NCBI RefSeq assembly: GCF_000145275.1
Contig: NC_014393.1
Coordinates: 1,119,367 to 1,151,366 of the forward strand
Direction of reading: 5' to 3'
DNA: 32,000 nucleotides
DNA from: Clostridium cellulovorans 743B
GTDB lineage: Bacteria > Bacillota > Clostridia > Clostridiales > Clostridiaceae
Below, piece by piece: positions 7,707-32,000 of this stretch. The translations under genes and the position numbers were made by a program. The notes below the pieces were generated by a model. The model did not search any database and was not told the origin of the DNA. It saw only the letters and a program-made list of their open reading frames with translations. The stretch's first letter is position 1, and the number at the start of each line of letters is the position of its first letter.

Positions 7707-7774
7707 ATCCCCAATTTGTATTATTCAGGCTAAAAATTTAAATAAAAAAGTTTATTATGTGAATTTAAGAGATG

Positions 7775-7815
7775 AAAGCACTGATTCTGTTTCGAATGAG
7801 TGCTTTTTCTCTTTG
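7775..7815 (+). terminator. Rho-independent terminator between convergent genes
   Basis: AAAGCACTGATTC pairs with GAATGAGTGCTTT (12 bp, one mismatch), followed by TTTTCTCTTT. Confidence 0.7.
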
Positions 7816-11190: not shown

Positions 11191-11271
11191 AAGGTATTTG
11201 AATTTAGCAGGTAATTATCAGAGGTAATCAATGAAAATATTGTAGCGTGTTTCTAAGGAAAGGGGAAAATT

Positions 11272-12102: not shown

Positions 12103-12270
12103 AATTCATATAAGATATTATAAATCTAAGATAGTATAATGTGCATAATTAAATTTGCCCCCAAAACATATATATGACCATGGAAATTAACAAAGTTGAC
12201 GAAGCCACACTACTGCAGTGATATATAGGTTATATATTGATAGTAAAGCTGAACCTAGATAAAAGCTTTA

Positions 12271-12309
12271 CCCAAAGGTGCAAATGCCAGATGCCCAAAG
12301 GTACAATTG
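12271..12309. promoter_or_regulatory. Two copies of the CCCAAAGGTRCAAWTG motif upstream of the second SDR gene
   Basis: CCCAAAGGTGCAAATG at 12271..12286 and CCCAAAGGTACAATTG at 12294..12309, starting 23 bp apart. The second copy is identical to the site at 9183..9198. Confidence 0.45.
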
Positions 12310-12409
12310 AGGAAAAGGTTTAAGAATTATATACTAAGAACATAAAAGATAGCCTGTTGTGCTAACTGAATATTAAGGATTATAAAATAATTAATCATAG
12401 GGGGAAATT

Positions 12410-13210
12410 ATGAAGGTAGAAAATAAAAACATAGTAGTTACTGGTGGAGGAAACGGTGTTGGAAGAGAAGTAGTTCTTAAACTATTATCAAAAGGTGCTA
12501 GGGTAATTGCAATTGATATAAATAAATCTGCACTAGAGGAAACATATAAAATATCTGGTGGAAGCGATAAATTATTGACACGAGTTGTGAATATTACAGA
12601 TAAAAAAGCTGTCTTAGATTTTGCAGAAGAAATCATTGGAACTTTGGGGTATATTGATGGAGTTATCAATAATGCAGGAATTATACAACCCTTTGTACAA
12701 TTGAAAGATTTAACCTTTGAACAAATAGATAAAGTAATGGATGTTAATTTTTATGGAACATTGTATATGACAAAAGCATTTTTAAATCATTTATTGACTA
12801 GACCAGAAGCACATATTGTGAATATTGCTAGTATGGGAGGATTTTTCCCAGTGCCAGGTCAAAGTGCATACGGTGCTTCAAAGGCAGCAGTTAAGATAAT
12901 GACGGAAGGCTTGTATTCAGAACTATCAGATACTAATGTACATGTATCCGTTGTATTTCCAGGTGGTATAGCCACAGATATAAAGAAAAACTCACAGCTT
13001 ACTAATGAGAGTGCTTCGGAAAAAGAGAAAAATTCTAAATTAATATTATCACCTTCTGCTGCTGCTGAAAAGATTATAAGTGGAATGGAAAAAAATAAGT
13101 ACAAGTTCTGCATTGGCAAGGATTCTAATCTTATGGATTTTATGTATAGAATAAATCCAGGTTTTGCTACTAAAGTAATTAAACGAGCTCTTGGTTCAAA
13201 GATACATTAG
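12410..13210 (+). CDS. SDR-family oxidoreductase
   Basis: TGGGNGVG cofactor motif, NNAG, and catalytic YGASKAA. Confidence 0.85.
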   Translation: MKVENKNIVVTGGGNGVGREVVLKLLSKGARVIAIDINKSALEETYKISGGSDKLLTRVVNITDKKAVLDFAEEIIGTLGYIDGVINNAGIIQPFVQLKDLTFEQIDKVMDVNFYGTLYMTKAFLNHLLTRPEAHIVNIASMGGFFPVPGQSAYGASKAAVKIMTEGLYSELSDTNVHVSVVFPGGIATDIKKNSQLTNESASEKEKNSKLILSPSAAAEKIISGMEKNKYKFCIGKDSNLMDFMYRINPGFATKVIKRALGSKIH

Positions 13211-14130: not shown

Positions 14131-14608
14131 ATAGATCCTCCATTCAAAATATCAATCTAATTTATTTAAAGCATTGAATAAGTAATTGGTATAAATTTAT
14201 TATATGGTAACTTATACTTTATAACAAGTTTAATATATGCACATAAACGGTTATAATTACTAATTGTATCTTCTAGATCCCAATATGCTAGTTGTTGCTT
14301 TTGATTACTTTCTTTTTCTAGGCTTTTCAAGTTAAGAAGTATTTATACATAACTAGGACCTTTTATTGAGGTTGAAATGATAAAAAGAGTTAGGAAATAA
14401 AAGGTTGTTTATCGAAAATTAAATGATGTGAGTTAAAAATTTGCATATGTTAGTTAAATGTTTACAAAATATTCAGCAAAAAAATAATCATTTATACGAA
14501 TTACTATATTGAGTTACTTTATAGATATATGAGTGCTTATTGAGAAAATTGCATAACTCAAAAACAAAGCATTTGTATAAAATCAATATTTTGAAAGGAA
14601 TGATGGGA

Positions 14609-16903
14609 ATGAAAGTCAAACAATTAGTGAAAAAGACTACAGTTAGTGTTGCTACATTAGCTATCTTTTCCACAATGCTTGGGGTACAAGCACACTCTGA
14701 AACTGTAAGCAAGACTTACAATTATGCAGAAGCATTTCAAAAATCAATGTACTTTTATGATGCAGAGAAATGTGGAGCAGGTATTACAGGTGGAAAGTTA
14801 GAATGGAGAGGGGATTGTCATACTGATGATGCAAAGATCCCTTTAGTGCCAGCAGGAAAAGGCGCTGATGGTGCAATGGCAGAGAAAGGTGTTTCCTTAA
14901 CTCAAGAATTTATTGATGCCAACAGAAAATATCTAGATCCTGATGGTGATGGAACTGTTGATTTAAGTGGTGGTTTTCATGATGCAGGAGACCATGTTAA
15001 GTTTGGGTTACCTGGCTCTTATGCAGCAGCTACTTTAGGTTGGGGTTTTTATGAATTTAAAGATGCTTATGCCAGAATCGGTGAAGAAGCTCATATGAGA
15101 GATTTATTAAAGTGGTATTCAGATTATTTCTTACGTTGTACTTTCATGAATGAAAATGGAGAAGTTGTGGCTTTCTGCTATCAAGTTGGAGAAGGAAGCT
15201 CCGACCACAGCTACTGGGGTGCGCCAGAACTTCAACCTACACTTAGACCTGCATATTTTGCAACTCCGCAGACTCCTGCTAGTGACCAAGTTGCTGGAGC
15301 TGCTGCAGCACTTGCGATAATGTATTTAAATACGAAAGATACTGATGCTGCCTATGCTGAAAAATGTTTAAGTACTTCAAAAGCTCTTTATAATTTCGCA
15401 GTTAAGTATCGTGGACTTGGATACTCTGGAGGGTTCTATGGTTCATCTTATGATGAGGATGAACTTTCTTGGGCAGCAGTATGGCTTAATATTGCAACAG
15501 GAGAAAAATCTTATATTAATGACATAGTTGAGGTTTCTCCAGATGGACGTTATTTAGGCTATCTTGGAAAGATAATTAAATCTACTCAGGATGATTGGCA
15601 AAATATTTGGTGTCATAGCTGGGATGTTGTTTGGGGTGGTGTATTTGCGAAGCTAGCTCCAATAACTAATACAGAGAGAGATTGGTACATATTTAGATGG
15701 AACATCGAATATTGGTCAGGGGTTCCACATGAAGACCCAAGTGACAAAACCTTTATGGCTGCTACTCCAGGTGGGTTCAAGGTAGTAAATACTTGGGGCT
15801 CAGCACGTTATAATTCAGCTGAACAATTATGTGCCTTAGTATATAAGAAGGAAACTGGTAGTAGTGATTTCGATGCATGGGTTAAGAGCCAAATGAATTA
15901 TATATTAGGTGATAATCCTTTGAATAGATGCTATGAGGTAGGTTATGCAGAGAATTCAGCAAAGCATCCACATCACAGAGCTGCTCATGGTTCTATAACT
16001 AACAACATGGGTGTCCCAAATGAACACAGACATACTCTTTGGGGAGCTTTAGTAGGAGGTCCAGACCAGACTGATAGCCATAAAGATGATACAACGGACT
16101 TTGTAGGTAATGAGGTTGCAGTAGATTACAATGCAGGTTTTGTTGGAGCTTTAGCAGGTATAACTAAATATTTTGGACAAGATCAAATGCCACTTGAAAA
16201 TTTTCCACTAAAAGAAGCTCCTGTAGATGAATTCTTTGTGGAATCAAAACTTGAGCAGGAAAATGGTGAAAGAACACAGGTTACAATAAGAGCCAACAAT
16301 CTTACAGTACATCCACCTCATACTGAAGACACAATAAAGGTTAGATATTTCTTTAATATATCTGAGCTTATGCAATATAACCAAGGAATAGATGCGATAA
16401 CTTGTCCTGTTATGTACGATCAATCAAATACTGTTGATGTTAAGGGTGCAACTATAAGTGCTCCAGTTGAATGGGATAAAGAAAAGGGTATTTATTATGT
16501 TGAAATTGATTGGAGTGGCAATGCTATATACGGTTCTAGAGAATTCCACTTTGGACTTGTAACAGGTCAAGATTCAAATTGGAAGGCTCATTGGGACCCT
16601 ACTAATGATTGGAGCCGCCAAGGTGTAACAGAAGAATATGCTCAAAACCCTCATATATCAATGTATGTTAATGGAAAGAAAGTATTCGGAGAAGAGCCAA
16701 CAACAAAAGTTCTAGTAATTAAAGGTGATGCTGATGGGAACGGAAAGGTTACAGCCATTGATTTAGCATACATTAAGAAATATATTTTAGGCCAAGGTAG
16801 CATAATTTTCCCAGGAGGCATAGAAGTAGTAGATATGAATGGAGATGGTGTAATAAATGCAATTGACCTTGCCCTCTTAAAGAAGGCTTTATTAGGACTT
16901 TAA
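14609..16903 (+). CDS. Cellulosomal endoglucanase: signal peptide, GH9 catalytic domain, CBM3c-like module, type I dockerin
   Basis: GH9 motifs DLSGGFHDAGDHVKF, HHRAAHGS, GALVGGPD, DYNAGF. The C-terminus has duplicated dockerin segments GDADGNGKVTAIDLAYIKKYIL and DMNGDGVINAIDLALLKKALL. The likely start is ATG 14609 (MKVKQLVKK...), 9 nt after AAGGA. The 14540 ORF start is an upstream extension. Confidence 0.9.
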   Translation: MKVKQLVKKTTVSVATLAIFSTMLGVQAHSETVSKTYNYAEAFQKSMYFYDAEKCGAGITGGKLEWRGDCHTDDAKIPLVPAGKGADGAMAEKGVSLTQEFIDANRKYLDPDGDGTVDLSGGFHDAGDHVKFGLPGSYAAATLGWGFYEFKDAYARIGEEAHMRDLLKWYSDYFLRCTFMNENGEVVAFCYQVGEGSSDHSYWGAPELQPTLRPAYFATPQTPASDQVAGAAAALAIMYLNTKDTDAAYAEKCLSTSKALYNFAVKYRGLGYSGGFYGSSYDEDELSWAAVWLNIATGEKSYINDIVEVSPDGRYLGYLGKIIKSTQDDWQNIWCHSWDVVWGGVFAKLAPITNTERDWYIFRWNIEYWSGVPHEDPSDKTFMAATPGGFKVVNTWGSARYNSAEQLCALVYKKETGSSDFDAWVKSQMNYILGDNPLNRCYEVGYAENSAKHPHHRAAHGSITNNMGVPNEHRHTLWGALVGGPDQTDSHKDDTTDFVGNEVAVDYNAGFVGALAGITKYFGQDQMPLENFPLKEAPVDEFFVESKLEQENGERTQVTIRANNLTVHPPHTEDTIKVRYFFNISELMQYNQGIDAITCPVMYDQSNTVDVKGATISAPVEWDKEKGIYYVEIDWSGNAIYGSREFHFGLVTGQDSNWKAHWDPTNDWSRQGVTEEYAQNPHISMYVNGKKVFGEEPTTKVLVIKGDADGNGKVTAIDLAYIKKYILGQGSIIFPGGIEVVDMNGDGVINAIDLALLKKALLGL

Positions 16904-17924: not shown

Positions 17925-18197
17925 AAAAAGGCCATGAAAAGAGCAGTAGTTATTTTTAAAACTTACAGAGAGTTCCTTTTGCTGAGATGGAACAGTGGAC
18001 AATTTAATGAAACAAGTCTTGGAGCTGCATACGGATCCTATTTTATCCATAGGTGATGCTATGACGTTTGTTCACGTTACAGAACTAGGGTATAATTTTG
18101 TACTTGATAAGGTTAGTATGGTGACATACTAATGAAATAGGGTGGCAACGCGGTATAATCGCCCCTACAAATTATTTGTAGGAGGTGTTTTTTTTAC
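17925..18197 (+). promoter_or_regulatory. T-box riboswitch leader, probable Met (AUG) specifier
   Basis: Stem I elements GAAAAGAGCAGTAG and CAGAGAG..GCTGAGA. Candidate specifier TTA-ATG-A with ATG at 18007..18009. Conserved T-box sequence AAATAGGGTGGCAACGCGG (18135..18153). Terminator CCCCTACAAA/TTTGTAGGAGG (18162..18185) followed by a long T-run. Confidence 0.8.
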
Positions 18198-18242
18198 GTT
18201 TTTTTATGCAAAGATAGGATTATATTTTAAGGAGTGTTCATT

Positions 18243-20234
18243 ATGAAAGATAAAAAAATAGAAAGACCTATATTTCCTAAAAAAGCTATTATAACTGCGG
18301 GAATGCCATATGGTAATAAAGATTTACATTTTGGTCATGTAGGTGGCGTGTTTGTTCATGCTGATACCTTCGCAAGATTTTTAAGAGATAGAATTGGAAA
18401 TGAAAATGTTATATTTGTCTCAGGAACAGATTGCTATGGCTCACCTATTTCAGCGAGTTATTTAAAGCTTGTAGAGGAAGGAAAATATGAAGGGTCTATA
18501 GAGGAGTATGTTCGTGAATATCATGAAAAACAAAAGGAAGTTTTAGAGAAATACGAAATGAGCATGAATCTATACGCAGCTTCTGCCTTGGATAGAGCTG
18601 GTGAAATTCATAAAGGTGTATCGGAAGAAATATTTAATAAGTTATATGACAATGGGTATTTAGCAAAAGCTTCTTCACCACAGTTTTATGACCCTGATTT
18701 TAAGGTGTTTCTAAATGGCAGGCAAGTAGTTGGGAAATGTCCTATTGAAGGGTGTAGCTCAGACAAAGGTTATGCAGATGAATGTGATTTAGGTCATCAA
18801 TATATGCCAGATGAATTAATTGACCCAAAGAGTATTTTATCTGGGAAAACACCTGAATTAAGAAAGGTGACAAATTGGTATTTTAAATTAGAGGAGTATA
18901 ACAATACCTTAGCTGAAAGGGTAGATTATTTAAGGGCAAATTCTAACTTACGAAAAAATTTATTAAATACCATAGAAGAATCTCTAAAACCACCAGTCAT
19001 TTTTGTAAAACGTAAGCAACTAGAAGGTATTACAGATTTAGAAGAAAAATTACCGAAGCATAGGACGATTGATGAACCTAAAAAGCCTTCTATTACTTTT
19101 GTGTTTGAAAGTCTAGAGGATAGAGATATTGCAAGAGGGGTATTTGATGAAGTTGGAGTTCGTTTTAGAACCGGTAAGACCTTAGTACCTTTTAGGTTAT
19201 CAGGAAATGTTGAGTGGGGTATACCAGTGCCAGATAAGGAAGAGCTGAAAGCTTTAACCTTTTGGGTTTGGCCTGAATCTTTATGGGCTCCTATTTCTTT
19301 TACAAAAACATATCTTGAAACCATAGGTAAGAATCCTGACCAATGGACAGAGTGGTGGCATTCCGAGGATTCAAAGGTATATCAATTTATTGGAGAAGAT
19401 AATGTTTATTTTTACGGGATTGCTGAAATGGCAATGTTTATGGCTTTAGAGGGGATTAAAGCTGGAGATAAAATAGATTGGGATAAGATAAATCTTCCAC
19501 ACTTGATTGCTAACAGCCATCTATTATTTATGAATAAAAAAGCAAGTAGTAGTGGTGCTGTAAAACCACCTATGGCAAGAGAATTATTAGAATATTATAC
19601 ACCAGAGCAATTACGTATGCATTTCCTGAGCTTAGGACTTTCAAAGGGAAGTGTTAGTTTTATGCCACAAGTATTCATGGAGGAAAAAGATAAACAAGGC
19701 CCTGATACAGTTTTAAAAGATGGCAATTTGTTGACTAACGTATTTAATAGACTTGTCCGTTCTTGTTTTTACACGGCACAAAAGCATTTTAATGGTACAA
19801 TACCAGTAGGTGAAATTAGTGATAGTATTATGGAAGAATCAAAAGAAGCTATTCTTACCTATGAAAGGCATATGTATAATCACGAATTTCATAGCTTAAT
19901 TTACGTTTTAGATAGCTACATTCGTAATATGAACAAGTATTGGGTAAATAATATGAGAGTAGCAGATACTAGCGATGATAATGCACTTAGAAAACAAGTT
20001 CTGATAGATGCCTTTCATGCCGTTAGAACTGTTACAACTTTAATTCATCCAATTGCACCAAAGAGCTGTGAAAAGGTAAGAGAATATCTAAATGTTAATG
20101 AAAACCTTTGGAATTGGGAATATATTTTTGAGCCAGTTTATAAATTTATAGTTGATCAAACTATGCATAAGTTAAAGTTTTTAGAGCCACGAGTGGACTT
20201 TTTTGAAAAGCATCAATCACAAATTTCTTTCTAG
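18243..20234 (+). CDS. metG: Methionyl-tRNA synthetase (E. coli-like core, no C-terminal tRNA-binding domain, atypical signature motifs)
   Basis: ATG 18243 lies 8 nt after AAGGAG (18229..18234). HIGH motif as HFGH (18327..18338). Knuckle region GKCPIEGCSSDKGYADECDLGH..PDELIDPKSILSGKTP parallels E. coli MetRS. The KMSKS position reads KASSS (19539..19553). Confidence 0.8.
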   Translation: MKDKKIERPIFPKKAIITAGMPYGNKDLHFGHVGGVFVHADTFARFLRDRIGNENVIFVSGTDCYGSPISASYLKLVEEGKYEGSIEEYVREYHEKQKEVLEKYEMSMNLYAASALDRAGEIHKGVSEEIFNKLYDNGYLAKASSPQFYDPDFKVFLNGRQVVGKCPIEGCSSDKGYADECDLGHQYMPDELIDPKSILSGKTPELRKVTNWYFKLEEYNNTLAERVDYLRANSNLRKNLLNTIEESLKPPVIFVKRKQLEGITDLEEKLPKHRTIDEPKKPSITFVFESLEDRDIARGVFDEVGVRFRTGKTLVPFRLSGNVEWGIPVPDKEELKALTFWVWPESLWAPISFTKTYLETIGKNPDQWTEWWHSEDSKVYQFIGEDNVYFYGIAEMAMFMALEGIKAGDKIDWDKINLPHLIANSHLLFMNKKASSSGAVKPPMARELLEYYTPEQLRMHFLSLGLSKGSVSFMPQVFMEEKDKQGPDTVLKDGNLLTNVFNRLVRSCFYTAQKHFNGTIPVGEISDSIMEESKEAILTYERHMYNHEFHSLIYVLDSYIRNMNKYWVNNMRVADTSDDNALRKQVLIDAFHAVRTVTTLIHPIAPKSCEKVREYLNVNENLWNWEYIFEPVYKFIVDQTMHKLKFLEPRVDFFEKHQSQISF

Positions 20235-20453: not shown

Positions 20454-21221
20454 CCACCTGTAGATGTAGTTATTTACAGGTGGTTATATTTTTGTTTTAC
20501 GAATACCACAGGTTTTACCTGTGGTTCTAAAAAGCTTCTAGCGATGAGTAGAAAAAAAGAATACCTCCAATGTAAAATGGTAGTAGGTTTTCCGACCACA
20601 ACCAAAAGTACAAAGGAGGTATATCCGTAATGGATAATAGTAGTTTAGCACATAGTAAATGGAATTGTAAATATCACATAGTCTTCGCACCAAAGTATAG
20701 GAGACAAATCATATATGGAAAAATAAAAGCGGATATAGGGGTAATACTTAGAAAGTTATGTGAACATAAAGGAGTAGAAATTATTGAAGCAAATGCATGT
20801 AAGGATCATATACATATGCTTGTAAGTATACCTCCGAAGTTAAGTGTCTCTCAGTTTATGGGGTATTTGAAAGGTAAGAGTTCATTGATGATTTTTGACA
20901 GACATGCAAATTTGAAATATAAATATGGGAATAGGCAATTTTGGTGTAAAGGCTATTACGTTGATACAGTTGGAAGAAACAAAAAGATAATAGAAGAATA
21001 CATAAAGAATCAAATACAGGAAGATTTAGCATATGAACAAATGAGCTTGAAAGAATTTATTGACCCGTTTACGGGTGAATCAGTAAACAAAGGCAAAAAA
21101 TAAAGCACCTTTTAGGTGCAGCCAGTAAAGGTATGCGGTTGGCAAACCGCTCAATGTGCGAGTAGCACGGCCAGTAACATGCCCTTATAGGGCTAAAGCA
21201 AACCACCCGTTTGACGGGTGG
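20454..21221 (+). mobile_element. IS200/IS605-family insertion sequence (IS200-type, tnpA only); boundaries approximate
   Basis: A Y1 transposase gene is flanked by subterminal hairpins. Left: CCACCTGTA..TACAGGTGG (20454..20483, followed by a T-rich run) and CCACAGG/CCTGTGG (20506..20524). Right: GCACCT/AGGTGC (21105..21119), GCGGTT/AACCGC (21135..21150) and CCACCCGT/ACGGGTGG (21203..21221). There are no terminal inverted repeats, as expected for this family. Confidence 0.8.
20630..21103 (+). CDS. tnpA: IS200-family Y1 (HUH) transposase TnpA
   Basis: 157 aa with WNCKYHIVFAPKYRR, the HUH motif DHIHMLVSIPPK, and a catalytic-Tyr region GYYVDTVG. RBS AAAGGAGG. Confidence 0.92.
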   Translation: MDNSSLAHSKWNCKYHIVFAPKYRRQIIYGKIKADIGVILRKLCEHKGVEIIEANACKDHIHMLVSIPPKLSVSQFMGYLKGKSSLMIFDRHANLKYKYGNRQFWCKGYYVDTVGRNKKIIEEYIKNQIQEDLAYEQMSLKEFIDPFTGESVNKGKK

Positions 21222-22415: not shown

Positions 22416-22435
22416 ATTAATTAAGGGGAATGGTT

Positions 22436-22918
22436 ATGGGCAATAAGGCAACTTTAATAGTTTGTGCATCAGTACATCATAAAAATACTATAAAAATTGC
22501 TAATGCAATTAGTGACATATTAGAGGCTGATGTAATAGAACCAAAGGATTTTGATATTGAAAGTATATCTAGATATGACTTGATTGGGTTTGGTTCGGGT
22601 ATATATAATGGAAAACATCATGAGAGTATATTAAATTTGGTTAGCAGTATTAATAAACAAAATAATAAGAAAGCGTTTATCTTTTCAACAGCAACTATTC
22701 CATTAGAAGTTCCACATAAAACTCTTAATGAAATGTTGATTGAAAAAGGTTTTGATGTAATTGGGCATTTTTGCTGTAAAGGCTTTATGGATTACAGTTT
22801 TACAAAATACCTATTTAGAGGCTTAAATAAAGGAAGACCAAATAATAAAGATTTTGAAAGAGCGCGTCAATTTGCTATGAAAATAAAACAAACGCTACAA
22901 GCATCTTCATTTTCATAA
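22436..22918 (+). CDS. Flavodoxin-family protein
   Basis: ATG 22436 lies 7 nt after AAGGGG. The ORF track ATG at 22430 is too close to the RBS. Flavodoxin-like pattern LIVCASVHHKNT..., YDLIGFGSGIY. Confidence 0.7.
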   Translation: MGNKATLIVCASVHHKNTIKIANAISDILEADVIEPKDFDIESISRYDLIGFGSGIYNGKHHESILNLVSSINKQNNKKAFIFSTATIPLEVPHKTLNEMLIEKGFDVIGHFCCKGFMDYSFTKYLFRGLNKGRPNNKDFERARQFAMKIKQTLQASSFS

Positions 22919-23096: not shown

Positions 23097-23702
23097 TTAA
23101 GTTCTTTTTTTTACAAACTTCCTTGCAACATAAAGACATAAGCATATTACTAAAATCGAAGCAATGATATCTGAGTAAAAGTCCATAAAATGGAGCACAT
23201 CTTCCCAGGACTCTCCAAGAATTGCTCCTGCATATACCAGCAATGTGTTCCAAATAAGAGTTCCTGCTGTGGTGTATATTAGAAAAACACTAAACCTCAT
23301 ATTTGACATGCCAGCTGGGATTGAAATTAAGCTTCTGACCAAGGGAATCATTCTGCAGAAAAATATAGTTCTGTTCCCATAGCGATTAAACCAACTATTG
23401 GCTTTATGAATGTCGCTTACCTTAACTCTAAGAATATGTCCATAGCGACTAATTATCCTTTCTAATTTATTTACATTAAGTAACTTGCCAATATTGTAAA
23501 GTATAGCAGCACCAGTTACAGAGCCAGCAGTGGCAGCGATAATTACCCCTAGAATAGTCATGTGTGTATTTGTGGTCATGAATCCCCCAAAGGTAAGAAC
23601 TATCTCAGAAGGAATAGGTGGAAAAACATTTTCCAGTAAAATCATTAAAAAGGTACCGAAGTAACCGTAGTTCTCCATAAAATTTGTAATCCAATTGTCC
23701 AT
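23097..23702 (-). CDS. DedA-family membrane protein
   Basis: The N-terminus ENYGYFGTFLMILLENVFPPIPSEIVLTFGGF and the FFCRMIPLVRSLISIPAG block are typical of the DedA/SNARE-associated family. Confidence 0.85.
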   Translation of the reverse strand: MDNWITNFMENYGYFGTFLMILLENVFPPIPSEIVLTFGGFMTTNTHMTILGVIIAATAGSVTGAAILYNIGKLLNVNKLERIISRYGHILRVKVSDIHKANSWFNRYGNRTIFFCRMIPLVRSLISIPAGMSNMRFSVFLIYTTAGTLIWNTLLVYAGAILGESWEDVLHFMDFYSDIIASILVICLCLYVARKFVKKRT

Positions 23703-23944
23703 AATGCAATCCTCACTTTTGGCATAGTTTATATAGAAGCGTATAATTAAATTATGGCCATTTTTTATGAAAATGACGGAGCTTTAAAGTTAATTATAGA
23801 GGCTATACTATTGACTTATGCAATTTTATCTTTAGATATAACTGGAAGTATATTAAACGACCTAATATGATAAATATAACTATATCAGCTAAAGGATAAA
23901 TTATCAATAGATTTAGTTGTTTTACAAATTTTGTTAAAAGGGTT

Positions 23945-23987
23945 CAGCATTTCAGTTGCCATTTATGGCAAGTTAGATGCTGTTTTT
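23945..23987 (+). other. Imperfect 38-bp palindrome plus T5 run (terminator-like) upstream of the RiPP-like locus
   Basis: CAGCAT..TTGCCAT-TT-ATGGCAA..ATGCTG (23945..23982), followed by TTTTT (23983..23987). No annotated plus-strand gene lies upstream. Confidence 0.35.
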
Positions 23988-24210: not shown

Positions 24211-25470
24211 ATGATTAATAATAATAAAGTTACCAATGAAGTTAAGTATTATTTAAGCAATAAAGTTAAGCATCATTTAAGCAATAATGCCATTGATGAA
24301 ATCAAGTTATGCAAGGTCATTATTAGCTTATCTCATAATTATAAAATCGAGAATTTAGTAAAGGCAATAAAAGGCTTACCAGATATAAATATAGAAGCAA
24401 TTGATAATACAGAATATTTTGTATTTGCATCACTTACACCTGAACAAATTAATTTACTAGAACATATTCCAGAGGTTAGGAATGTATGGATTGATAAAGA
24501 AGTAGAAAAAATGGATTATGAAGTTTTAAAAACTATAAATGAGCCAGCTTTTCTTTTTGATGGAACTGAATTTTGTAATGATATAACATGGGCTGTTTTA
24601 GATGATGGAATTGATAAAATGCATGATGCGCTTAAATATTCAAATGTAATAGACATTGATCTTACAGGAGAGGGACCCACAGGTAAACATGGTACACATG
24701 TAGCTGGAATAATTGCTGGTTGGGATCCTAGTAATCATTTTTCAGGGGTTGCACCTAAATGTAAATTATATAATTTTAAAGTAATTAGTGAAAATTCGTC
24801 AAGTTCCCTTAGTCTTTGTATAAAAGCTATGGAACAGATAAGGAAGATTAACAGTGAATCAAATGAATTAGTTATACATGGTGCAAATTTAAGTTTCGGT
24901 GCAGCAAATTCAATTAAAGAATTTTATTCTGGACATAGTCCTATTTGTGAAGAGGCCAATAGATTAGTGGATTCAGGAGTAGTTGTATGTGTGGCAGCAG
25001 GAAATTATGGAGCTCAGGCATTTGAGGTACCAGGTGATGATATCAGTCCCAAAATATGGGCAAATTATGAGATGATTTCTGTGACGGATCCGGGTACTGC
25101 AGAAAAAGTAATTACAGTAGGTTCAACTTATAGAATTGAACCTGAAAAGTATGGGATTTCTGTATTTTCCTCTAAAGGGCCTACTGGTGATGGTAGGATA
25201 AAACCAGATTTAGTAGCGCCGGGTGACTGTATTTCTTCAGCGTTTCTTAATAATTCTTATATATCAGCAAGTGGGACAAGTTGTGCAACACCATTTGTTT
25301 CAGGTGCGGTAGCTCAACTTTTACATAGCTATCCACAATTAATTGGGAATCCAAGTAAAGTAAAAGAAATTATTATTTCATCATGCAAAGATTTGAAAAG
25401 GGATAATTATTTTCAAGGACATGGATTACTAGACTTGGGAAAAGCTCTTGAATTGGCAAAAGAGAGCTAA
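24211..25470 (+). CDS. S8 (subtilisin-like) serine peptidase with I9-like propeptide and no signal peptide
   Basis: Catalytic triad contexts AVLDDGID, HGTHVAGIIAG, SGTSCATPFVSGAVAQLL, with oxyanion Asn in GANLSFG. ATG 24211 lies 7 nt after AGGTGG; ATG 24205 is too close. The N-terminus is hydrophilic and contains a 24-bp tandem repeat (24240..24287, VKYYLSNK/VKHHLSNN). Confidence 0.88.
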   Translation: MINNNKVTNEVKYYLSNKVKHHLSNNAIDEIKLCKVIISLSHNYKIENLVKAIKGLPDINIEAIDNTEYFVFASLTPEQINLLEHIPEVRNVWIDKEVEKMDYEVLKTINEPAFLFDGTEFCNDITWAVLDDGIDKMHDALKYSNVIDIDLTGEGPTGKHGTHVAGIIAGWDPSNHFSGVAPKCKLYNFKVISENSSSSLSLCIKAMEQIRKINSESNELVIHGANLSFGAANSIKEFYSGHSPICEEANRLVDSGVVVCVAAGNYGAQAFEVPGDDISPKIWANYEMISVTDPGTAEKVITVGSTYRIEPEKYGISVFSSKGPTGDGRIKPDLVAPGDCISSAFLNNSYISASGTSCATPFVSGAVAQLLHSYPQLIGNPSKVKEIIISSCKDLKRDNYFQGHGLLDLGKALELAKES

Positions 25471-25509
25471 TTTTTACCTTATTTAGCCACTTGAAAGGAG
25501 GTGAAAAAG

Positions 25510-25716
25510 ATGAGTAAGAATATAGATGATTTAATAAAAAACCTACGTAGTGCAGCAGATCAATTAGATTCAATAAAAGATTCAGCTTCAGATGAAGATA
25601 TTAAAAAAGTAATAGAAAATAATGTTGAACCTATGAGTTGCTGTGGTACTTGTACTGGTGTACCACCAATACCACCATGTGAAAATACATGTGTAAGTCT
25701 TCCACCATTCATGTAG
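25510..25716 (+). CDS. Candidate RiPP precursor peptide (68 aa: acidic Cys-free leader, Cys/Thr/Pro-rich core)
   Basis: GGAGG (25497..25501) lies 8 nt before ATG 25510. Sequence: MSKNIDDLIKNLRSAADQLDSIKDSASDEDIKKVIENNVEP / MSCCGTCTGVPPIPPCENTCVSLPPFM. It sits immediately upstream of two rSAM-SPASM genes. Confidence 0.75.
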   Translation: MSKNIDDLIKNLRSAADQLDSIKDSASDEDIKKVIENNVEPMSCCGTCTGVPPIPPCENTCVSLPPFM

Positions 25717-25778
25717 AAATTTTTTATTACATTATGTACTCATACAATCTATCATAAATTGTATGCTATGTACACATG

Positions 25779-25801
25779 TTTGGCGGCTTTCAGCCGTCAA
25801 A
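25779..25801 (+). promoter_or_regulatory. Intercistronic hairpin between the precursor and the first maturase gene
   Basis: TTTGGCGGCT (25779..25788) pairs with AGCCGTCAAA (25792..25801): 10 bp including one G-U, 3-nt loop, no T-run. A second 8-bp hairpin CATACAAT/ATTGTATG lies at 25741..25765. Confidence 0.5.
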
Positions 25802-25857
25802 CAATCTATTAATAAATTCGTAATGTAACTTTCATTTTATAAATGTAGGAGGGAAAT

Positions 25858-27240
25858 ATGAGAGAGGATTATTATCCATTATTAAAAGATACAGTAAGAA
25901 TAAAAAAAATGCCTTCAGGTTGTTGGGTTGTAGATTTAGTTGCAGATAATGGAGCGGTTATACATCCATTCGAGGCATTCGCTTTATCTCTCTGTACAGG
26001 TGAATATACTCTTGAAAATCTGAAATATATATTTTCATCAGTTTTTAGTATAGAAAAAAGCGACTATATTGATACTATTTTTAATAAGCTCGACAGATAT
26101 ATTATATGGAAGGACAAGGTTTCAGCTTGTAACCATAAATATGATCCAAAAACATTTTTATATGATATTAAAACTACAGAAAATTCTTCTAAAAACAGAT
26201 TTGATAGCCCTGGTGAGATGACTATAATTCTAACACATAACTGCAATTTTAGATGTATATATTGTTTCAACAATTCAGGAGAGGCAAAAACTGTTCAGTT
26301 AAATACCAATGAATGGCTTGAGGTAATAAAGCAAGCTAGGGAATTAGGAATAGTAAAATGTACTGTAAGTGGTGGAGAGCCAATGTTACATCCCGGATTT
26401 TTTGATATTCTAAGAGCTATTACGGATAGTGGAATGTCTGTATACATATGCACAAATGGAAGTCTTGTTGATGAAAATGTGGTAAAACAATTTAAGGAAA
26501 TAGGATTGCCATGTGTTCAATTTAGTCTTGATGCTGGTACACCAGAAATTCATGATAAAATGGCAACTGTAAAAGGAACATATCCAAAAGTAATTAATGC
26601 TATTAAACTCCTTGTAGGTGCTGGGATAGATGTATATATCAAGTCGGTAATTACACCTGTCAATTATAGTGATATAAGTAATCTTATAGATTTATGTAGT
26701 GAATTAGGTGTGAAACAATTAGTACTTGATAGATTTGATCTTAGCAATGCAGGCAGAGGAGGTACTGAACTTTTTATGACAAGAAAGCAAGAGCTTGACT
26801 TAGAAGATTTAGTACAAACAAAGATAAAAGAACTCTCAGGGAAAATGATACTTAAGGCAGCTACAGTTCAAAGATGTTGGTCTGGTGAGGATAATATAGT
26901 AGTATGTGGAGCATTTAGACGTTCTATAAATATTCTTCCGAATGGTGATATAAGTGTATGTGAAAAACTCATCGAAGTACCTGAGATGACAGCAGGTAAT
27001 GTAAAAGACAATACACTTGAGGAGATATGGAATTCTAAAAAAGTTAGTGATATTGTTAATCCAAGTAAAGATATTATAGACGAACCTTGTAAAACTTGTG
27101 AACACTTAGATCATTGCCATACAGGATGTTATGCTTTATCTTTACTTGTCAGTGAAAATCCATACTCTATAGATCCAAGATGTTGGAAAGGAAATTATTC
27201 TAATAAATTTTTTATGGATTCAACTTATGAAAGGATATAG
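25858..27240 (+). CDS. Radical SAM / SPASM-domain peptide maturase with N-terminal RRE(PqqD)-like extension, paralogue 1
   Basis: CNFRCIYC (26242..26265), SGGEPMLHP, CX12GX4C (CGAFRRSINILPNGDISVC) and CX2CX5CX3C (CKTCEHLDHCHTGC). About 110 aa precede the rSAM core. RBS AGGAGGG. Confidence 0.88.
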   Translation: MREDYYPLLKDTVRIKKMPSGCWVVDLVADNGAVIHPFEAFALSLCTGEYTLENLKYIFSSVFSIEKSDYIDTIFNKLDRYIIWKDKVSACNHKYDPKTFLYDIKTTENSSKNRFDSPGEMTIILTHNCNFRCIYCFNNSGEAKTVQLNTNEWLEVIKQARELGIVKCTVSGGEPMLHPGFFDILRAITDSGMSVYICTNGSLVDENVVKQFKEIGLPCVQFSLDAGTPEIHDKMATVKGTYPKVINAIKLLVGAGIDVYIKSVITPVNYSDISNLIDLCSELGVKQLVLDRFDLSNAGRGGTELFMTRKQELDLEDLVQTKIKELSGKMILKAATVQRCWSGEDNIVVCGAFRRSINILPNGDISVCEKLIEVPEMTAGNVKDNTLEEIWNSKKVSDIVNPSKDIIDEPCKTCEHLDHCHTGCYALSLLVSENPYSIDPRCWKGNYSNKFFMDSTYERI

Positions 27241-27242
27241 TT

Positions 27243-28646
27243 ATGTCAATTATAAAATTTGAAGTGAATTCTAGGGAAAGACACCTTTATCCAGTGCGAG
27301 CTAGATATATAAGGACTCATATTATGAATAATTATAATATGATATCTAATTTTAGAGATGGTGGATCTGAATATATATCAACACAAAAAGCATTGATTTT
27401 TGAATTATTTAGCGGCAAATATGATATTGAAACTATTACTAAAATATTTTCAGGTACATTTGAGATTGATTTAGAAAAATCAGAACAATGTATAAAAGCT
27501 GTTCTGGATGAATACGCTTCACATATAACATTCTATCCACATGAAATCCAAACAGATTTATCCTGTGATCCCATGAGGATTCTGAAAAAGTCTTCTACAA
27601 AGTGGCAATATAATCCTGTGAGATATGAAAGTCCTGAGGAGTTAGTGCTATCCCTTTCATATGTGTGTAATCATAAATGTATTTATTGTTGTAATAGTTC
27701 TGGAAGCCGTATAGAAGATGAACTTTCGTTTAATGATTGGATTAAAGTAATTGACGAAGCTGCAGATTTAGGGGTTGAAACAATACTTTTTTCTGGTGGC
27801 GAACCATTAATGTATCCAGACTTTATAAAGTTAGTAAAGCGAACAAAAGATAATGGTATATATCCAATAGTTTCAACTAATGGTACATTGATATCTGAAG
27901 AAACTGCAAAACAACTTTCAGAAGCAGGTATAGACTTTGTTCATTTAAGTATGTCGGCAGCAAATGAAGAATTATATGATAGTATTATAGGTTATAAAGG
28001 TAATCTTCCTAAAGTGAAAGCTGCAATAAAAGCATTAAAAGATAATAATATTTATATTAGGTTAAAAGTGGTTTTAATGCCTGTGAATATAAAGCATATT
28101 GAGGAATTGTTAGATTTCTGTATTGAAAATAAAGTAGATTGCGTACATTTAGCGCCATTTATACTTACACATATATCACGAAATGGGAAAGAACTCATGC
28201 CCTCAGTAAACGATTTAAATAACTTGAAAAAAGTGATAAACAGTAAGAGAAATAAAATTAAAATATTAGAACCTTCTGTTGAGGGAATGTGCTGGAGTGG
28301 ACCAACTGACATTGTAAAATGTGGTGGAATAAAATCTAAACTGACGATTATTTCAAATGGGAATATAACACTTTGTGAGACTCTAGGTAAGACCCCTAAT
28401 TTTATATTAGGTAATGTGAAAACAACAAAAATAAAAGATATATGGAACTCTGATTTACCTGATAATATATTAAAGGTAAATATGAAATTAGTTGAAGAAC
28501 CCTGCAAAAGTTGTGAGTATTTAGAAGGGTGTAAAACAGGTTGTTTTATGTGTTCATTAATATATTCTGATAATTCATATTCAGTTGATCCAAGATGTTG
28601 GAAAGCTAATATCTCGAATAATGCTTATAGAAGTATTTATAGTTAG
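27243..28646 (+). CDS. Radical SAM / SPASM-domain peptide maturase with N-terminal RRE-like extension, paralogue 2
   Basis: CNHKCIYC (27666..27689), SGGEPLMYP, CGGIKSKLTIISNGNITLC and CKSCEYLEGCKTGC. It shares the C-terminal DPRCWK.N.SN tail with paralogue 1. It starts 2 nt after the preceding stop. Confidence 0.88.
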   Translation: MSIIKFEVNSRERHLYPVRARYIRTHIMNNYNMISNFRDGGSEYISTQKALIFELFSGKYDIETITKIFSGTFEIDLEKSEQCIKAVLDEYASHITFYPHEIQTDLSCDPMRILKKSSTKWQYNPVRYESPEELVLSLSYVCNHKCIYCCNSSGSRIEDELSFNDWIKVIDEAADLGVETILFSGGEPLMYPDFIKLVKRTKDNGIYPIVSTNGTLISEETAKQLSEAGIDFVHLSMSAANEELYDSIIGYKGNLPKVKAAIKALKDNNIYIRLKVVLMPVNIKHIEELLDFCIENKVDCVHLAPFILTHISRNGKELMPSVNDLNNLKKVINSKRNKIKILEPSVEGMCWSGPTDIVKCGGIKSKLTIISNGNITLCETLGKTPNFILGNVKTTKIKDIWNSDLPDNILKVNMKLVEEPCKSCEYLEGCKTGCFMCSLIYSDNSYSVDPRCWKANISNNAYRSIYS

Positions 28647-28708
28647 CTTTTATTACTAAGTTTCAATTAAATTAGAATAATAATTTATTTAATAATAAGG
28701 AGACAAAA

Positions 28709-29842
28709 ATGAAATATATTTTTTTAAGCGATGTTCATATAGGTGAAAATATTCCAGAAAACTGGTATCAGAAATCTGTTCATCAAGTATACCTTAAAGC
28801 TATTTTACAATACATACAAGCAAATGCACAGCAAATACAAGATGTTGTTATTCTTGGAGATTGGTTTGATTCATGGATGTATCCGCCTGAACCTCAAATT
28901 TCAGCTACAGTAACTGAAATCATAAATAATAATCTCGAAGTGTTTACTGTGCAGGATGATGGAGATTTTATTACTTGTATGGATAGTATAAAAGGAGACT
29001 TATATTATGTTCGTGGAAATCATGATATGACTATAGATTTCAATGAATTAAATAATTATATAAAGCTTCATAGTAAGAAAAACAAACAAGTAGTATGTTT
29101 GGATGAAGCTTATGGGGTAAATGGCATTTATGCTGAGCATGGTCATTACTTTGATTTACTTTGTAAACCTGATCTCGGTGACAAAAATCTGTACAAGCCG
29201 TTACCTATAGGTTATTTTGTTTCAAGAGTTTCAGCTTTGTATTGTCAACAAAAATTGCAAGAGGCTGGTAATCAGAATGCAGCTCAACTACCTGGTCAAG
29301 GAAACCCTGATATGTCCAGTATTTTGAAGGCAATAGTGTCAAATTATTCTGGAGATTATAGTAATTTTGCAAATGTGATAATGTCAACCCTTTCAAATTT
29401 AGTTAAGTGTCCGGATATGACTAAATTAGTTTTTACAATGCCTGATGGTACAGTAATAAATGCAGCAGATGTTGCAAAGATGTATCCTGATATTTTGAAA
29501 AATCAGCAAGACTTAACTAGCTTACTTGTAGTTGATGCGGACAACTCTTTAGACAATAATGGTGAAAATTTATGTAATAGTAGTTATAAAGGAATTAAAA
29601 ATAGAGTTGTAGTAATGGGACATACGCATGTAGATAGACTTCAAAGTCACTATACATTATTTAATGGTAAGACTATTTACGTCAATTCAGGTTTTATGTG
29701 TCCAGCAATTCCAGACATAAGTACTGGTATGGTAATGACATTTACTGAAGTTGAACAAAATGGTTCAACATTTACAGTTAGGTTAAAGAAAGTTAATTAT
29801 CCAGGCACAAGTATATCAACGTTAACAGAAGCTACTATTTGA
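28709..29842 (+). CDS. Calcineurin-like metallophosphoesterase
   Basis: Metallophosphoesterase (MPE) motifs LSDVHIG, GDWFDSW, RGNHD, EHGH and MGHTH. RBS AAGGAG. No signal peptide. Confidence 0.8.
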   Translation: MKYIFLSDVHIGENIPENWYQKSVHQVYLKAILQYIQANAQQIQDVVILGDWFDSWMYPPEPQISATVTEIINNNLEVFTVQDDGDFITCMDSIKGDLYYVRGNHDMTIDFNELNNYIKLHSKKNKQVVCLDEAYGVNGIYAEHGHYFDLLCKPDLGDKNLYKPLPIGYFVSRVSALYCQQKLQEAGNQNAAQLPGQGNPDMSSILKAIVSNYSGDYSNFANVIMSTLSNLVKCPDMTKLVFTMPDGTVINAADVAKMYPDILKNQQDLTSLLVVDADNSLDNNGENLCNSSYKGIKNRVVVMGHTHVDRLQSHYTLFNGKTIYVNSGFMCPAIPDISTGMVMTFTEVEQNGSTFTVRLKKVNYPGTSISTLTEATI

Positions 29843-30056: not shown

Positions 30057-30731
30057 TTATTTAATGATACTCTCTACATAAAGAGTAAATGCAGTTTTTT
30101 TACTTTCATTGCCTTGTGCATCTTTATATACAGATATAAACTTTCCGTCTATATAAGAACTTTTTTTATTAAAGCTTGTGGTTCCATTAAAGTAAAATTG
30201 GGAACTAGAAGCTTTAATGTGTGTAACACTAAAAGTTGGATTAGTGTCGAGATTTGTTACTTTAAAAGTAGCTCCGTCCTCATTAATAGATAATTCTTTA
30301 GTGACTCTAGAACTTGCAGATAATTCTTTGGTGTCTCCAGAACTTACAGAAGATACTGAGAACGGATACTCGCAGCCAAATATAGGACTAGTGTTATTAA
30401 TTGCAAGAGCATTAGAAGAAGAAAGTTTGATAGCAAACATTAAGGGCTCATAAGGTACTATTTCAATCCAGCAATCTTCAAAACCTTGTCCAAAGCTTAA
30501 ATTAGTATCTATAATAATTTTTGACATATGATTATCTAAATATATTTCACCAGATACTTGTGGCAGGCATTCGGAAAGATTTTTGATTTTATTGTTGATG
30601 TCTAAGGAAAATTTAATGTTAGAGGTATTATCAGGGGTTGTTATGTATATTTCTGTAGAACTTAGCGTATTATTTTGAAACTTTGGATTAAAAATTACAT
30701 TTATAGAACTTGGTGTCTTTATATTTGTCAT
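30057..30731 (-). CDS. Hypothetical protein (224 aa, Ser/Thr/Asn-rich, no signal peptide)
   Basis: A strong RBS AAGGAG precedes the ATG on the minus strand. The gene lies 42 nt downstream of the LytTR regulator gene. I recognise no family. Confidence 0.7.
   Translation of the reverse strand: MTNIKTPSSINVIFNPKFQNNTLSSTEIYITTPDNTSNIKFSLDINNKIKNLSECLPQVSGEIYLDNHMSKIIIDTNLSFGQGFEDCWIEIVPYEPLMFAIKLSSSNALAINNTSPIFGCEYPFSVSSVSSGDTKELSASSRVTKELSINEDGATFKVTNLDTNPTFSVTHIKASSSQFYFNGTTSFNKKSSYIDGKFISVYKDAQGNESKKTAFTLYVESIIK
30288..30347. repeat. 30-bp tandem duplication inside the hypothetical CDS
   Basis: AGATAATTCTTTAGTGACTCTAGAACTTGC / AGATAATTCTTTGGTGTCTCCAGAACTTAC (26 of 30 identical). It encodes the ..TKELS.. 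decapeptide twice on the minus strand. Confidence 0.8.
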
Positions 30732-30773: not shown

Positions 30774-31535
30774 TTACAAACCAAAGAGGCTTTTAAAACT
30801 AGTCATATAACTTCTGCTTACAGTTATATCAGAGTTGGAATCTCCATCCATTATTAACTTAAAGGTGCTATTGAACCAAGGAATAATTTCAGCTATCTTT
30901 TTAGTATTCACGATGAAGCTTTTGTGACAGCGAAAGAAACTAAGTTCATTTAATCTATCCTCATAATAATTAAGAGTTTCTTTGCTAGTGTAAGTCTTTC
31001 CTTTACAGGTGTTAATTTTCACATAACCACATTCTGAAAAAATAAAGCTTATATCTTCAATATCGCAAAGAAAGATTCTATCATTTTCCCATAGAGGTAG
31101 CTTTGAAATATTAGTTTTCATAGCTTTTTCTTTTATAAATTGATTTTTTTTAAATTTTTCCTTGGTAGTTTGGTCAACAGAAAACTTACTTAGTCTTTTA
31201 ATTGTTGCTTTTATTCTTTGTGGATCGATAGGCTTTAGTATATAGTCGATAGCACTTAACTCGAAGGCTTTTATCGCATAGTCGTCATAGGCAGTAACAA
31301 AAACAATTTTCATTTCCTCGTCATGGGATAAGATTTCTGCTGCACAAGATAACCCGTCAATTTCAGGCATGGAGATGTCAAGAAAAACTGCATCAGGTTT
31401 GTCAGTAATAATTTTCTTGATAGCTTCCAATGAGTCTTGGTACATTCCTATAATTTCAATATCCTCTTCTTTTGATAAGTAGTATTTAAGGTTATTAAGA
31501 CTTGCTAATTCATCGTCTACAAGTATTACTCTCAT
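30774..31535 (-). CDS. LytR/AlgR-family response regulator (receiver plus LytTR DNA-binding domain)
   Basis: MRVILVDDE.., FLDISMPEIDG, and a C-terminal LytTR-like segment (FFRCHKSFIVN, ITVSRSY). Confidence 0.9.
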   Translation of the reverse strand: MRVILVDDELASLNNLKYYLSKEEDIEIIGMYQDSLEAIKKIITDKPDAVFLDISMPEIDGLSCAAEILSHDEEMKIVFVTAYDDYAIKAFELSAIDYILKPIDPQRIKATIKRLSKFSVDQTTKEKFKKNQFIKEKAMKTNISKLPLWENDRIFLCDIEDISFIFSECGYVKINTCKGKTYTSKETLNYYEDRLNELSFFRCHKSFIVNTKKIAEIIPWFNSTFKLIMDGDSNSDITVSRSYMTSFKSLFGL

Positions 31536-31677: not shown

Positions 31678-32000
31678 TCAAAGATTTAGAGCATCACTTA
31701 AAGGTAATTCTAAGGTTACAATGGTACCTATTCCCTTGGTACTTTTTATTTTAATGGATTTGCCGTAAATCCTTTGTATACGGTTCTGAATATTTGAGAT
31801 ACCTATTCCTGCTTTCTTATCTGAACTGTTAAGTAAGGCAGTTAATTTTTCTTCAGTCATTCCTACTCCATCATCCTCAACGATAATAATAAGCATGTTA
31901 TTATTTTTTTTAACTGTGAGTCTTACAGTGCCTCCATCTTTACAGGGCAGTATTCCATGTCTTACTGAGTTTTCTACAATTGGTTGAATGATATATGCAG
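31678..32000 (-). CDS. Sensor histidine kinase, C-terminal HATPase part only (gene continues beyond the window)
   Basis: The minus-strand frame is open from nt 32000 (..AYIIQPIVENSVRHGILPCKDGGTVRLTVKK..) into the 31678..31896 ORF. N-box QPIVENSVRHG and G-boxes DDGVGM and GIGISN resemble LytS/YesM-type kinases. Confidence 0.8.
   Translation of the reverse strand, partial: AYIIQPIVENSVRHGILPCKDGGTVRLTVKKNNNMLIIIVEDDGVGMTEEKLTALLNSSDKKAGIGISNIQNRIQRIYGKSIKIKSTKGIGTIVTLELPLSDALNL

Follow-up and report, generated by a model that had tools for sequence, protein, structure and literature searches.

A candidate RiPP operon of an uncharacterised family, with paired radical-SAM enzymes and a metallophosphoesterase, in Clostridium cellulovorans

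What is made by five closely packed genes of Clostridium cellulovorans 743B that encode a subtilisin-like S8 protease, a peptide of 68 amino acids (aa), two radical S-adenosylmethionine (rSAM) proteins and a calcineurin-like metallophosphoesterase (MPE)? The genes lie at positions 24211-29842 of a stretch of 32,000 nucleotides (NC_014393.1, positions 1,119,367 to 1,151,366), hereafter called the window. We consider it likely that they form an operon for the biosynthesis of a peptide that is made by the ribosome and modified after translation (RiPP), of an uncharacterised family, in which several enzymes, guided by a leader, modify one Cys-rich peptide. That the cross-links introduced by the rSAM enzymes are S-C thioethers, of the sacti (C-alpha) or ranthi (C-beta/gamma) type, has in our estimate slightly better than an even chance. 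An initial annotation, made by reading this DNA, had recognised sactipeptide- or ranthipeptide-like logic in a Cys-rich peptide encoded beside proteins with a RiPP recognition element (RRE), an rSAM and a SPASM domain. This logic is supported; the thioether chemistry itself we infer. The five co-directional genes and the gaps of 39, 141, 2 and 62 nt between them, in this order, were borne out exactly by the listing of open reading frames (ORFs) and by sequence reading. NCBI entries exist for the peptide (ADL50707), rSAM1 (ADL50708) and the MPE (ADL50710). The features of the operon are as follows.

24211-25470 (alternative ATG 24205), plus strand: subtilisin-like S8 serine protease, proposed leader peptidase (Pfam).
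25510-25716, plus strand: precursor peptide gene, 68 aa, with a GGAGG ribosome-binding site (RBS) 8 nt before the ATG.
25510-25635, plus strand: precursor leader, residues 1-42, helical and Cys-free, motif KNLRxAADQL.
25636-25713, plus strand: precursor core, residues 43-68, 26 aa, SCCGTCTGVPPIPPCENTCVSLPPFM.
25858-27240, plus strand: rSAM1, 460 aa, RRE-like N-domain followed by radical-SAM and SPASM domains (Pfam), orthogroup 1.
27243-28646, plus strand: rSAM2, 467 aa, RRE-like/rSAM/SPASM paralogue (Pfam), orthogroup 2.
28709-29842, plus strand: calcineurin-like MPE, 377 aa, with an insert of ~130 aa (Pfam).

Is the 68-aa ORF a gene at all? Among its final 27 residues (MSCCGTCTGVPPIPPCENTCVSLPPFM) are 5 Cys, 3 Thr and 6 Pro; Cys is absent from residues 1-43. 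Sequence reading thus agrees with the initial description of an ORF with a strong RBS, a Cys-free N-terminal part and a tail of this composition. A word-based search with the single window peptide found itself as the sole match. A profile built from nine syntenic small ORFs, found in the genomic contexts of rSAM1 homologues, retrieved ~50 peptide clusters with E-values down to 1e-24, all of them unnamed or 'hypothetical'. An exhaustive scan of 1.84 billion representative proteins with a hidden Markov model (HMM) gave 15 representatives at 50% identity; by this small number in so many proteins, the peptide family is rare but real. The precursor had been said to resemble no family that could be named, and none of 48 family members matched any NCBIfam model, precursor models included. 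A metagenome scan with the type A alignment described below gave 55 pattern matches, a single one of which passed tblastn, on a 1.8-kb contig.

The peptides fall into two types. Type A comprises 16 sequences including that of the window, with five Cys and the pattern ...ELQ-SCCG(T/D)CTx(V/I)SxxPPCxxxCIxVSPLx. Its leader motif is (V/I)K(N/K)LRDAADQLE, its core pattern, that of the window, is SCCGTCT..PPCxxxCIxVSPL, and its alignment has S43, C44, C45, C48, T49, P56, C57 and C61 invariant. Type B comprises ~30 sequences with six Cys, of the pattern CC(N/G)xCxA(I/V)SxxC(V/T)PDxTPxKCxGGCTxTSFAF, together with a shorter variant. C44, C45, C48, C57 and C61 (window numbering) are invariant in 48/48 members, and across both types these five Cys are the sole invariant residues, S52 and S65 being nearly so.

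The company that the peptide keeps bears on whether it is the substrate of the enzymes. We collected 11 related loci with readable flanks (L081-L093, L082/L083 counted once), namely Clostridium felsineum (L081) and 10 further contigs. In all 11 the peptide adjoins orthologues of the same rSAMs, so that the conservation of the ORF beside homologous maturases holds wherever it was checked. Look-ups begun from the peptide alone likewise landed next to the enzymes, and at least 19 peptide clusters share one longest contig with an rSAM family member, as judged by identical length. The G+C content of the loci ranges from 29 to 70%, which argues that the system is widespread over distant taxa. Since the same gene set stands beside homologous peptides in independent genomes and metagenomes, the arrangement is, by this comparison, far beyond chance, and the comparison likewise marks the 68-aa ORF as a real, conserved gene.

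The full set of S8, peptide, two rSAMs and MPE occurs in the window, in C. felsineum, in L082/L083 and in L090, all type A. A high-GC type A locus, L084, has the S8 gene, two peptide genes and two rSAM genes. Its precursor genes stand in tandem (7213-7422 and 7579-7788), and the second has a degenerate leader (VQKGDAAD, not VKKLRDAAD) and a divergent C-terminus (LPSGV). A type A contig of 5.6 kb carries the peptide, two rSAMs and the S8 gene before it ends; no type A locus is without an S8 gene. Type B loci combine the peptide with three rSAMs, and a protease is absent. The number of rSAMs thus tracks the number of core Cys, two with five Cys and three with six. In L086, of type B, the third rSAM (10942-12319) is split into two ORFs, one of 306 aa with the rSAM core and one of 150 aa with the SPASM part; the gene may be a pseudogene or carry a frameshift, or the assembly may be wrong here. 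A separate scan of a genome collection with the rSAM alignment was set aside: its pattern, CNF[RK]C[IV]YC, is generic and found only distant rSAMs (22-34% identity).

A small ORF beside rSAM genes could also be no substrate. In that case the genes would serve as a module against phages or stress, or the rSAM proteins would mature a protein encoded elsewhere, and the neighbourhood would be coincidental. The PADLOC subtilase and viperin-like rSAM models do give matches, and a gene for an IS200-family transposase lies ~3 kb upstream. However, the PADLOC matches span generic catalytic domains only, on which ground the defence-system reading was rejected, and the MPE has no PADLOC match. Every related locus that was examined has peptide and rSAMs together, also those reached from the peptide alone, and the enzymes bear, according to the structure model described below, an RRE-like peptide-binding domain. 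We therefore give this explanation almost no credence and take the peptide as the probable substrate.

Which kind of enzymes, then, are rSAM1 and rSAM2? Both carry Radical_SAM (PF04055, ~1e-31) and SPASM (PF13186, 1e-11 and 3e-9) above the Pfam cut-offs. They are 34% identical over 450 aa, the N-terminal ~110 residues included, and both have the motifs CX3CX2C, GGEP, CX12GX4C and CX2CX5CX3C, so the initial description of two ~460-aa paralogues with rSAM and SPASM motifs is confirmed. The Cys of the SAM cluster of rSAM1 (C129/C133/C136) and its seven-Cys SPASM set (C350, C368, C411, C414, C420, C424, C442) are invariant in 38 homologues. SAM-cluster and SPASM motifs (CX9-15GX4C ... CX2CX5CX3C ... 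C) recur in 24/24 full-length copies from 10 loci, a count outside which stands the split L086 fragment without SPASM part. A neighbour-joining tree of 25 rSAM copies from 10 loci places the copies in position-specific orthogroups. Groups 1 and 2 are each common to types A and B, and group 3, sister to group 1, is restricted to type B. By the sharing of groups 1 and 2 between the types, the rSAM duplication is ancient and predates the parting of types A and B, and its copies have specialised. For rSAM2, GenBank (ADL50709) places the start at 27243 (467 aa) and RefSeq (WP_242655221) 27 codons later at 27324 (440 aa). The long form keeps the N-terminal strand YPxxxxxxR, which is conserved across the family in the RRE-like domain, so the protein is probably cut short by the RefSeq start.

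The AF2 model of rSAM1 has a pLDDT of 90.6 and a pTM of 0.90. Its N-domain shows strands at residues 6-9, 13-18, 21-26 and 33-35 and helices at 37-44, 52-63 and 69-77; in the model this is a winged-helix topology, beta3-alpha3, which is the RRE topology. Compared at sequence level with solved structures, the N-domain matched nothing. Foldseek ranks SuiB best for the whole model (E 9e-24, 468 aligned columns), followed by PqqE, SkfB and CteB at 457-472 columns, and anSME is also among the nearest folds. The predicted fold supports an RRE-rSAM-SPASM peptide-maturase architecture.

Neither rSAM passes an NCBIfam cut-off. The best-scoring models are PqqE, MftC, GeoRSP and StsB: PqqE gives 158 and 165 bits for the two window proteins against a cut-off of 381, and MftC 154 and 107 against 265. 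StsB gives 122 against 625 bits, AlbA 98 against 850, SkfB 92 against 300 and PapB 79 against 340. With every score far under its cut-off, the enzymes fall outside the characterised clades, as had been proposed. PqqE/PqqD and MftC/MftB are at the same time the closest known systems in HMM and PDB sequence comparison of both rSAMs, and they share the SPASM architecture. This raises the question whether the locus makes a peptide-derived cofactor in the manner of pyrroloquinoline quinone (PQQ) or mycofactocin. The rSAMs would then form C-C or other cross-links, and a small molecule, redox-active or metal-binding and kept inside the cell, would be cut out and trimmed by the S8 protease and the MPE. 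Several observations fit: the relationship to PqqE and MftC; a protease plus an additional hydrolase, as in the logic of PqqF/G and MftE; a cluster G+C content (31.3%) equal to that of the surrounding C. cellulovorans DNA (31.7%); and no exporter, neither among the scanned window ORFs nor conserved over the related loci, as already the initial annotation had it. Yet the PqqE and MftC scores reach only ~40-58% of the cut-offs, and the RRE is fused to the enzyme in the window. The peptide is not PqqA- or MftA-like; it lacks the conserved Glu/Tyr or C-terminal Val-Tyr, and the whole 26-aa core is kept with its five invariant Cys, well beyond a two-residue motif. Other pqq or mft genes are absent from the window, and no oxidase or partner dehydrogenase recurs near the related loci. 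LytTR-type regulators at three loci suit bacteriocins or signal peptides better. We regard a cofactor pathway as quite improbable.

If the product is a RiPP, is its chemistry that of thioethers? SPASM enzymes catalyse many types of reaction, and the nearest folds include, besides CteB and SkfB, the enzymes SuiB (Lys-Trp C-C bond), PqqE (C-C bond) and anSME (Cys oxidation). The operon could thus direct epimerisation, C-C or ether cross-links or a formylglycine-type Cys oxidation, the remaining Cys later acting as disulfide or metal ligands, and the abundance of Pro, Thr, Ser, Val and Ile in the type A core would suit such reactions. Against this, nothing but the five Cys is invariant in both sub-types, and more core Cys go with more rSAMs. 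Presumably, too, a SPASM set of only seven invariant Cys leaves room for a substrate thiolate as ligand, as in CteB. Non-thioether chemistry is in our view unlikely.

Thioether formation by the two rSAMs, which we prefer, has several points weighing against it or against the wider operon reading. The core lacks the order of classical sactipeptides, with N-terminal Cys donors and C-terminal acceptors, and the type A core also lacks the CxxxD/E acceptors of ranthipeptides. By HMM score, PqqE and MftC, which form C-C bonds, are closer to the rSAMs than thioether synthases are. The PqqD-type RRE assigned to both paralogues in the initial annotation stands as far as the fold of the rSAM1 model goes, but PF05402 (PqqD) at E <= 0.01 is matched by neither window rSAM, and among the relatives this model is found sub-threshold in 6/38, with a best E of 0.005. 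Type B loci are without a protease, so the leader may not always have to be removed, or a host enzyme may remove it. L084 is without an MPE of the family and has only an unrelated one ~1 kb upstream on the opposite strand. Finally, no kinase, nucleotidyl-transferase or phosphorylated substrate is encoded that would give the MPE an obvious job.

What could the S8 protease do? Peptidase_S8 (PF00082) matches residues 128-407 with 149.7 bits (1e-43), and the triad motifs around Asp (AVLDDGID), His (HGTHVAG) and Ser (SGTSxA) are kept in five orthologues. The second ATG has a better-spaced RBS (GGTGG) and agrees with the start of the C. felsineum orthologue. Because the N-terminus reads as hydrophilic, the protein is predicted to have no signal peptide, in keeping with its first description as a signal-less S8 subtilase. 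That description also called the N-terminus propeptide-like. An extension of ~120 aa is indeed conserved among the orthologues, but it is unannotated and has no Pfam match. A precedent exists in QhpE, a cytoplasmic subtilisin-like protease that removes the leader of QhpC after cross-linking by QhpD (PMC7876137); QhpD is an rSAM/SPASM enzyme making several Cys thioethers in this small Cys-rich polypeptide (PMC7876137). The likeness is that an rSAM for a small Cys-rich polypeptide comes with a cytoplasmic leader protease of the subtilisin type. In contrast to the window peptide, QhpC is an enzyme subunit with a cysteine tryptophylquinone (CTQ) cofactor, and the qhp operon adds dehydrogenase subunits, an ABC exporter and a flavoprotein. 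The QhpE model (NF049966) gives the window protease 16.5 bits against a cut-off of 165, and the window has no dehydrogenase genes.

The fifth gene is the least expected. Its product matches Metallophos (PF00149, 34.6 bits against 21.5) and Metallophos_2 (PF12850, 34.4 against 27), at 3e-8, and so is the calcineurin-like MPE it was first taken for. The metal-binding motifs SDxH, GDxxD, GNHD, HGH and GHTH are invariant in five orthologues, and the insert of ~130 aa has further invariant residues, among them P166, G168, F170, R173, Y259 and D282. All five motifs are shared with LpxH, SbcD/Mre11 and YfcE. The similarity is remote: solved SbcD, Vps29 and LpxH are found with PDB E-values of 1e-3 to 1e-1, and the LpxH model gives 25 bits against a cut-off of 134. 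The insert, between the HGH and GHTH motifs, recalls what we take to be the cap domain of LpxH. A single-sequence structure prediction of the MPE had a pLDDT of 33 and was not used for a fold search.

Orthologues of the MPE occur in L081, L082 and L090 and, at 37-40% identity, in the type B loci L086 and L093, which makes six loci with the window. Four other loci, all type B (L085, L087, L088, L092), encode DUF6765 instead, and the two families never occur in one locus. They are not homologues: this idea was rejected at an hhalign probability of 0.6%. The invariant positions of DUF6765 are rich in His and Asp. A kinship with Zn-dependent phospholipase C or P1 nuclease, which was suspected, has no statistical support: two of three DUF6765 proteins reach Pfam Zn_dep_PLPC below threshold (E 0.014-0.019), comparison with the phospholipase C (PLC) structure 1AH7 by hhalign gives a probability of 0.5% in an alignment limited to the HxxxD motif, and a comparison with PDB sequences found no match. 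The mutual replacement of MPE and DUF6765 across loci, and the fact that type B has, besides its rSAMs, no enzyme but one of these two, argue that their step is integral to maturation, not incidental.

From these parts we propose the following course. The RRE-like domains of the rSAMs would dock the leader of the precursor. The two rSAMs might then act as a complex, or each might install a different subset of cross-links on the core Cys. The complex would resemble that of TrnC and TrnD, which act together in thuricin CD biosynthesis (PMC12093266). In the cytoplasm, the signal-less S8 protease would cut off the leader between the conserved Q/M42 and the invariant S43, in the way QhpE removes that of QhpC. 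The MPE would perform a further required hydrolytic step, for which DUF6765, an unrelated His/Asp-rich protein, would stand in at sister loci. Export, if any, would proceed through a transporter encoded elsewhere.

How far is such a system known? Thuricin CD and ruminococcin C (RumMC1/RumMC2) also have two rSAM/SPASM paralogues per cluster. They have two or more differing precursors, whereas the window family has one precursor type for two or three rSAM orthogroups, and the window rSAMs are not members of their sequence families. A short Cys-rich precursor with a leader and an RRE-rSAM-SPASM enzyme is common to AlbA/subtilosin, SkfB, CteB/SCIFF thermocellin, PapB/freyrasin and StsB/streptosactin. 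Unlike in these sactipeptides and ranthipeptides, whose precursor and maturase models are unmatched at threshold, each peptide of the window family has two or three dedicated, anciently diverged rSAMs, with S8 and MPE/DUF6765 as conserved partners and the new core motif SCCGTCT..PPCxxxCIxVSPL; neither exporter nor immunity genes were found. The layout of S8, two rSAMs and MPE had at first been called unfamiliar. This stands for the phosphoesterase: we found no paper that places one in an rSAM RiPP, sactipeptide or ranthipeptide context, large datasets such as the supplement of PMC10288494 being outside the scope of that search. It does not stand for the pairing of S8 with rSAM or of two rSAMs, which have precedents. 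No paper was found on the operon accessions (ADL50707/ADL50708 and their RefSeq/UniProt equivalents) or on DUF6765, and a 2014 survey of RiPPs from anaerobes lists other C. cellulovorans clusters and not this operon. Large rSAM-RiPP datasets may contain the family without a name. What appears to be new is a precursor family and a maturase clade with an unusual conserved accessory set.

It is possible, though we think it doubtful, that the family represents a new class of RiPP: one Cys-rich core would be worked on by two or three specialised rSAM/SPASM enzymes, with an MPE or DUF6765 step for which RiPP biosynthesis has no precedent. Such a class would yield a chemically unprecedented scaffold, and the MPE/DUF6765 step could hydrolyse an intermediate linked through a phosphoester or a nucleotide, or cleave leader or scaffold in a new way. 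Much new enzyme chemistry, as well as narrow-spectrum antibiotics and signalling peptides of anaerobes, has come from RiPPs made by rSAM enzymes. Orphan families of such RiPPs are numerous; the design of several rSAMs for a single core and the MPE/DUF6765 partner set the present family apart. It offers a compact, conserved test case of how several SPASM enzymes split labour on a single core. Its conserved MPE/DUF6765 partner suggests that maturation may include a step new to RiPP biosynthesis, and the operon family would be the first functional context for DUF6765. C. cellulovorans 743B is cultivable and sequenced, so that the predictions are directly testable.

Does the family have wider relatives? 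A search for plasmid or phage carriage gave no plasmid match for the MPE and, for the rSAM, only distant rhizobial relatives besides PqqE/MftC. The relatives on rhizobial plasmids are full-length (26-29% identity to rSAM1, 95% coverage), and small ORFs lie beside the rSAM genes in three of the four plasmids examined.

L094:5715-5903, L096:3732-3923, L097:1976-2209 (minus strand): small ORFs next to rSAM1 relatives on rhizobial plasmids.

The small ORFs of L094 and L096 have helical leaders (LAEQLRAEAA..ARALRL and ..LAEQLRAEAAHAEARALRL..) like the type A leader. The cores are short, contain Cys and differ from each other (QPCCSPILCASVGG, GCDSGCWNLLSTCIQLQPI, GCDSCTVCPCMICW). L097 has three rSAMs and an S8/S53 peptidase. 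These neighbourhoods suggest a broader uncharacterised superfamily built on a shared pairing of leader and RRE.

How might the operon be expressed? The elements that bear on this are the following.

23719-23747, plus strand: candidate sigma-70-type promoter, TTGGCA-17-TATAAT, best consensus match in the region (11/12; consensus only).
23945-23987, plus strand: terminator-like hairpin (inverted repeat), 18-nt arms and a 2-nt loop, followed by TTTTT.
25777-25803, plus strand: G+C-rich hairpin of 12 bp in the spacer between precursor and rSAM1 (fold compared with shuffles).
30774-31535, minus strand: LytTR-type response regulator (Pfam Response_reg and LytTR), convergent with the operon.
31678-32000, minus strand: histidine-kinase fragment next to the LytTR regulator, convergent with the operon.

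The first hairpin lies in the 504-nt region upstream of S8, ~200 nt past the promoter-like site, and may be a transcription attenuator. Taken whole, the leader upstream of S8 has no unusual degree of structure (z = -0.58). Rfam matched neither the operon nor this hairpin, and the reading as a riboswitch or known RNA element was dropped. The spacer between precursor and rSAM1 folds at -33.6 kcal/mol, compared with -18.7 +/- 3.0 for shuffles (z = -5.0). Its hairpin has no T-tail and is thus not a canonical terminator; it may be a read-through attenuator or a transcript stabiliser that raises precursor over enzyme transcript, and in the proposed mechanism it would set this ratio. Extra precursor ORFs were searched for in the intergenic regions of the operon, and none was found. 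Homologous LytTR regulators stand by the type B loci L092 (31% identity, full length) and L086. This association hints at the LytTR protein as a candidate regulator of the operon, with control of the quorum-sensing type, and the neighbouring two-component system may govern its expression.

Further genes surround the operon. At ~1.3 kb upstream of the cluster lies a gene for a flavodoxin-like protein (22430-22918, plus strand). Its product could feed electrons to the rSAM enzymes; the gene is not kept near other loci. Divergent from the S8 gene is that of a DedA/VTT-domain membrane protein (23097-23702, minus strand), and L084 has a VTT-domain protein ~1 kb downstream of its cluster (12012-12515). 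These neighbours could be a coincidence or a link to immunity or transport. Convergent with the MPE gene is an ORF of 224 aa (30057-30731, minus strand) with neither a Pfam nor a PADLOC match and without a counterpart beside related clusters. The transposase gene upstream is of the IS200/Y1 type (20630-21103, plus strand). A T-box leader (17925-18169, plus strand; Rfam RF00230, 105.9 bits) precedes a methionyl-tRNA-synthetase-like gene (18234-20234). Farther upstream, at 14540-16903 on the plus strand, a glycoside hydrolase family 9 (GH9) cellulase with a family 3 carbohydrate-binding module (CBM3) and a type I dockerin is encoded, a cellulosomal protein typical of C. cellulovorans and unrelated to the operon.

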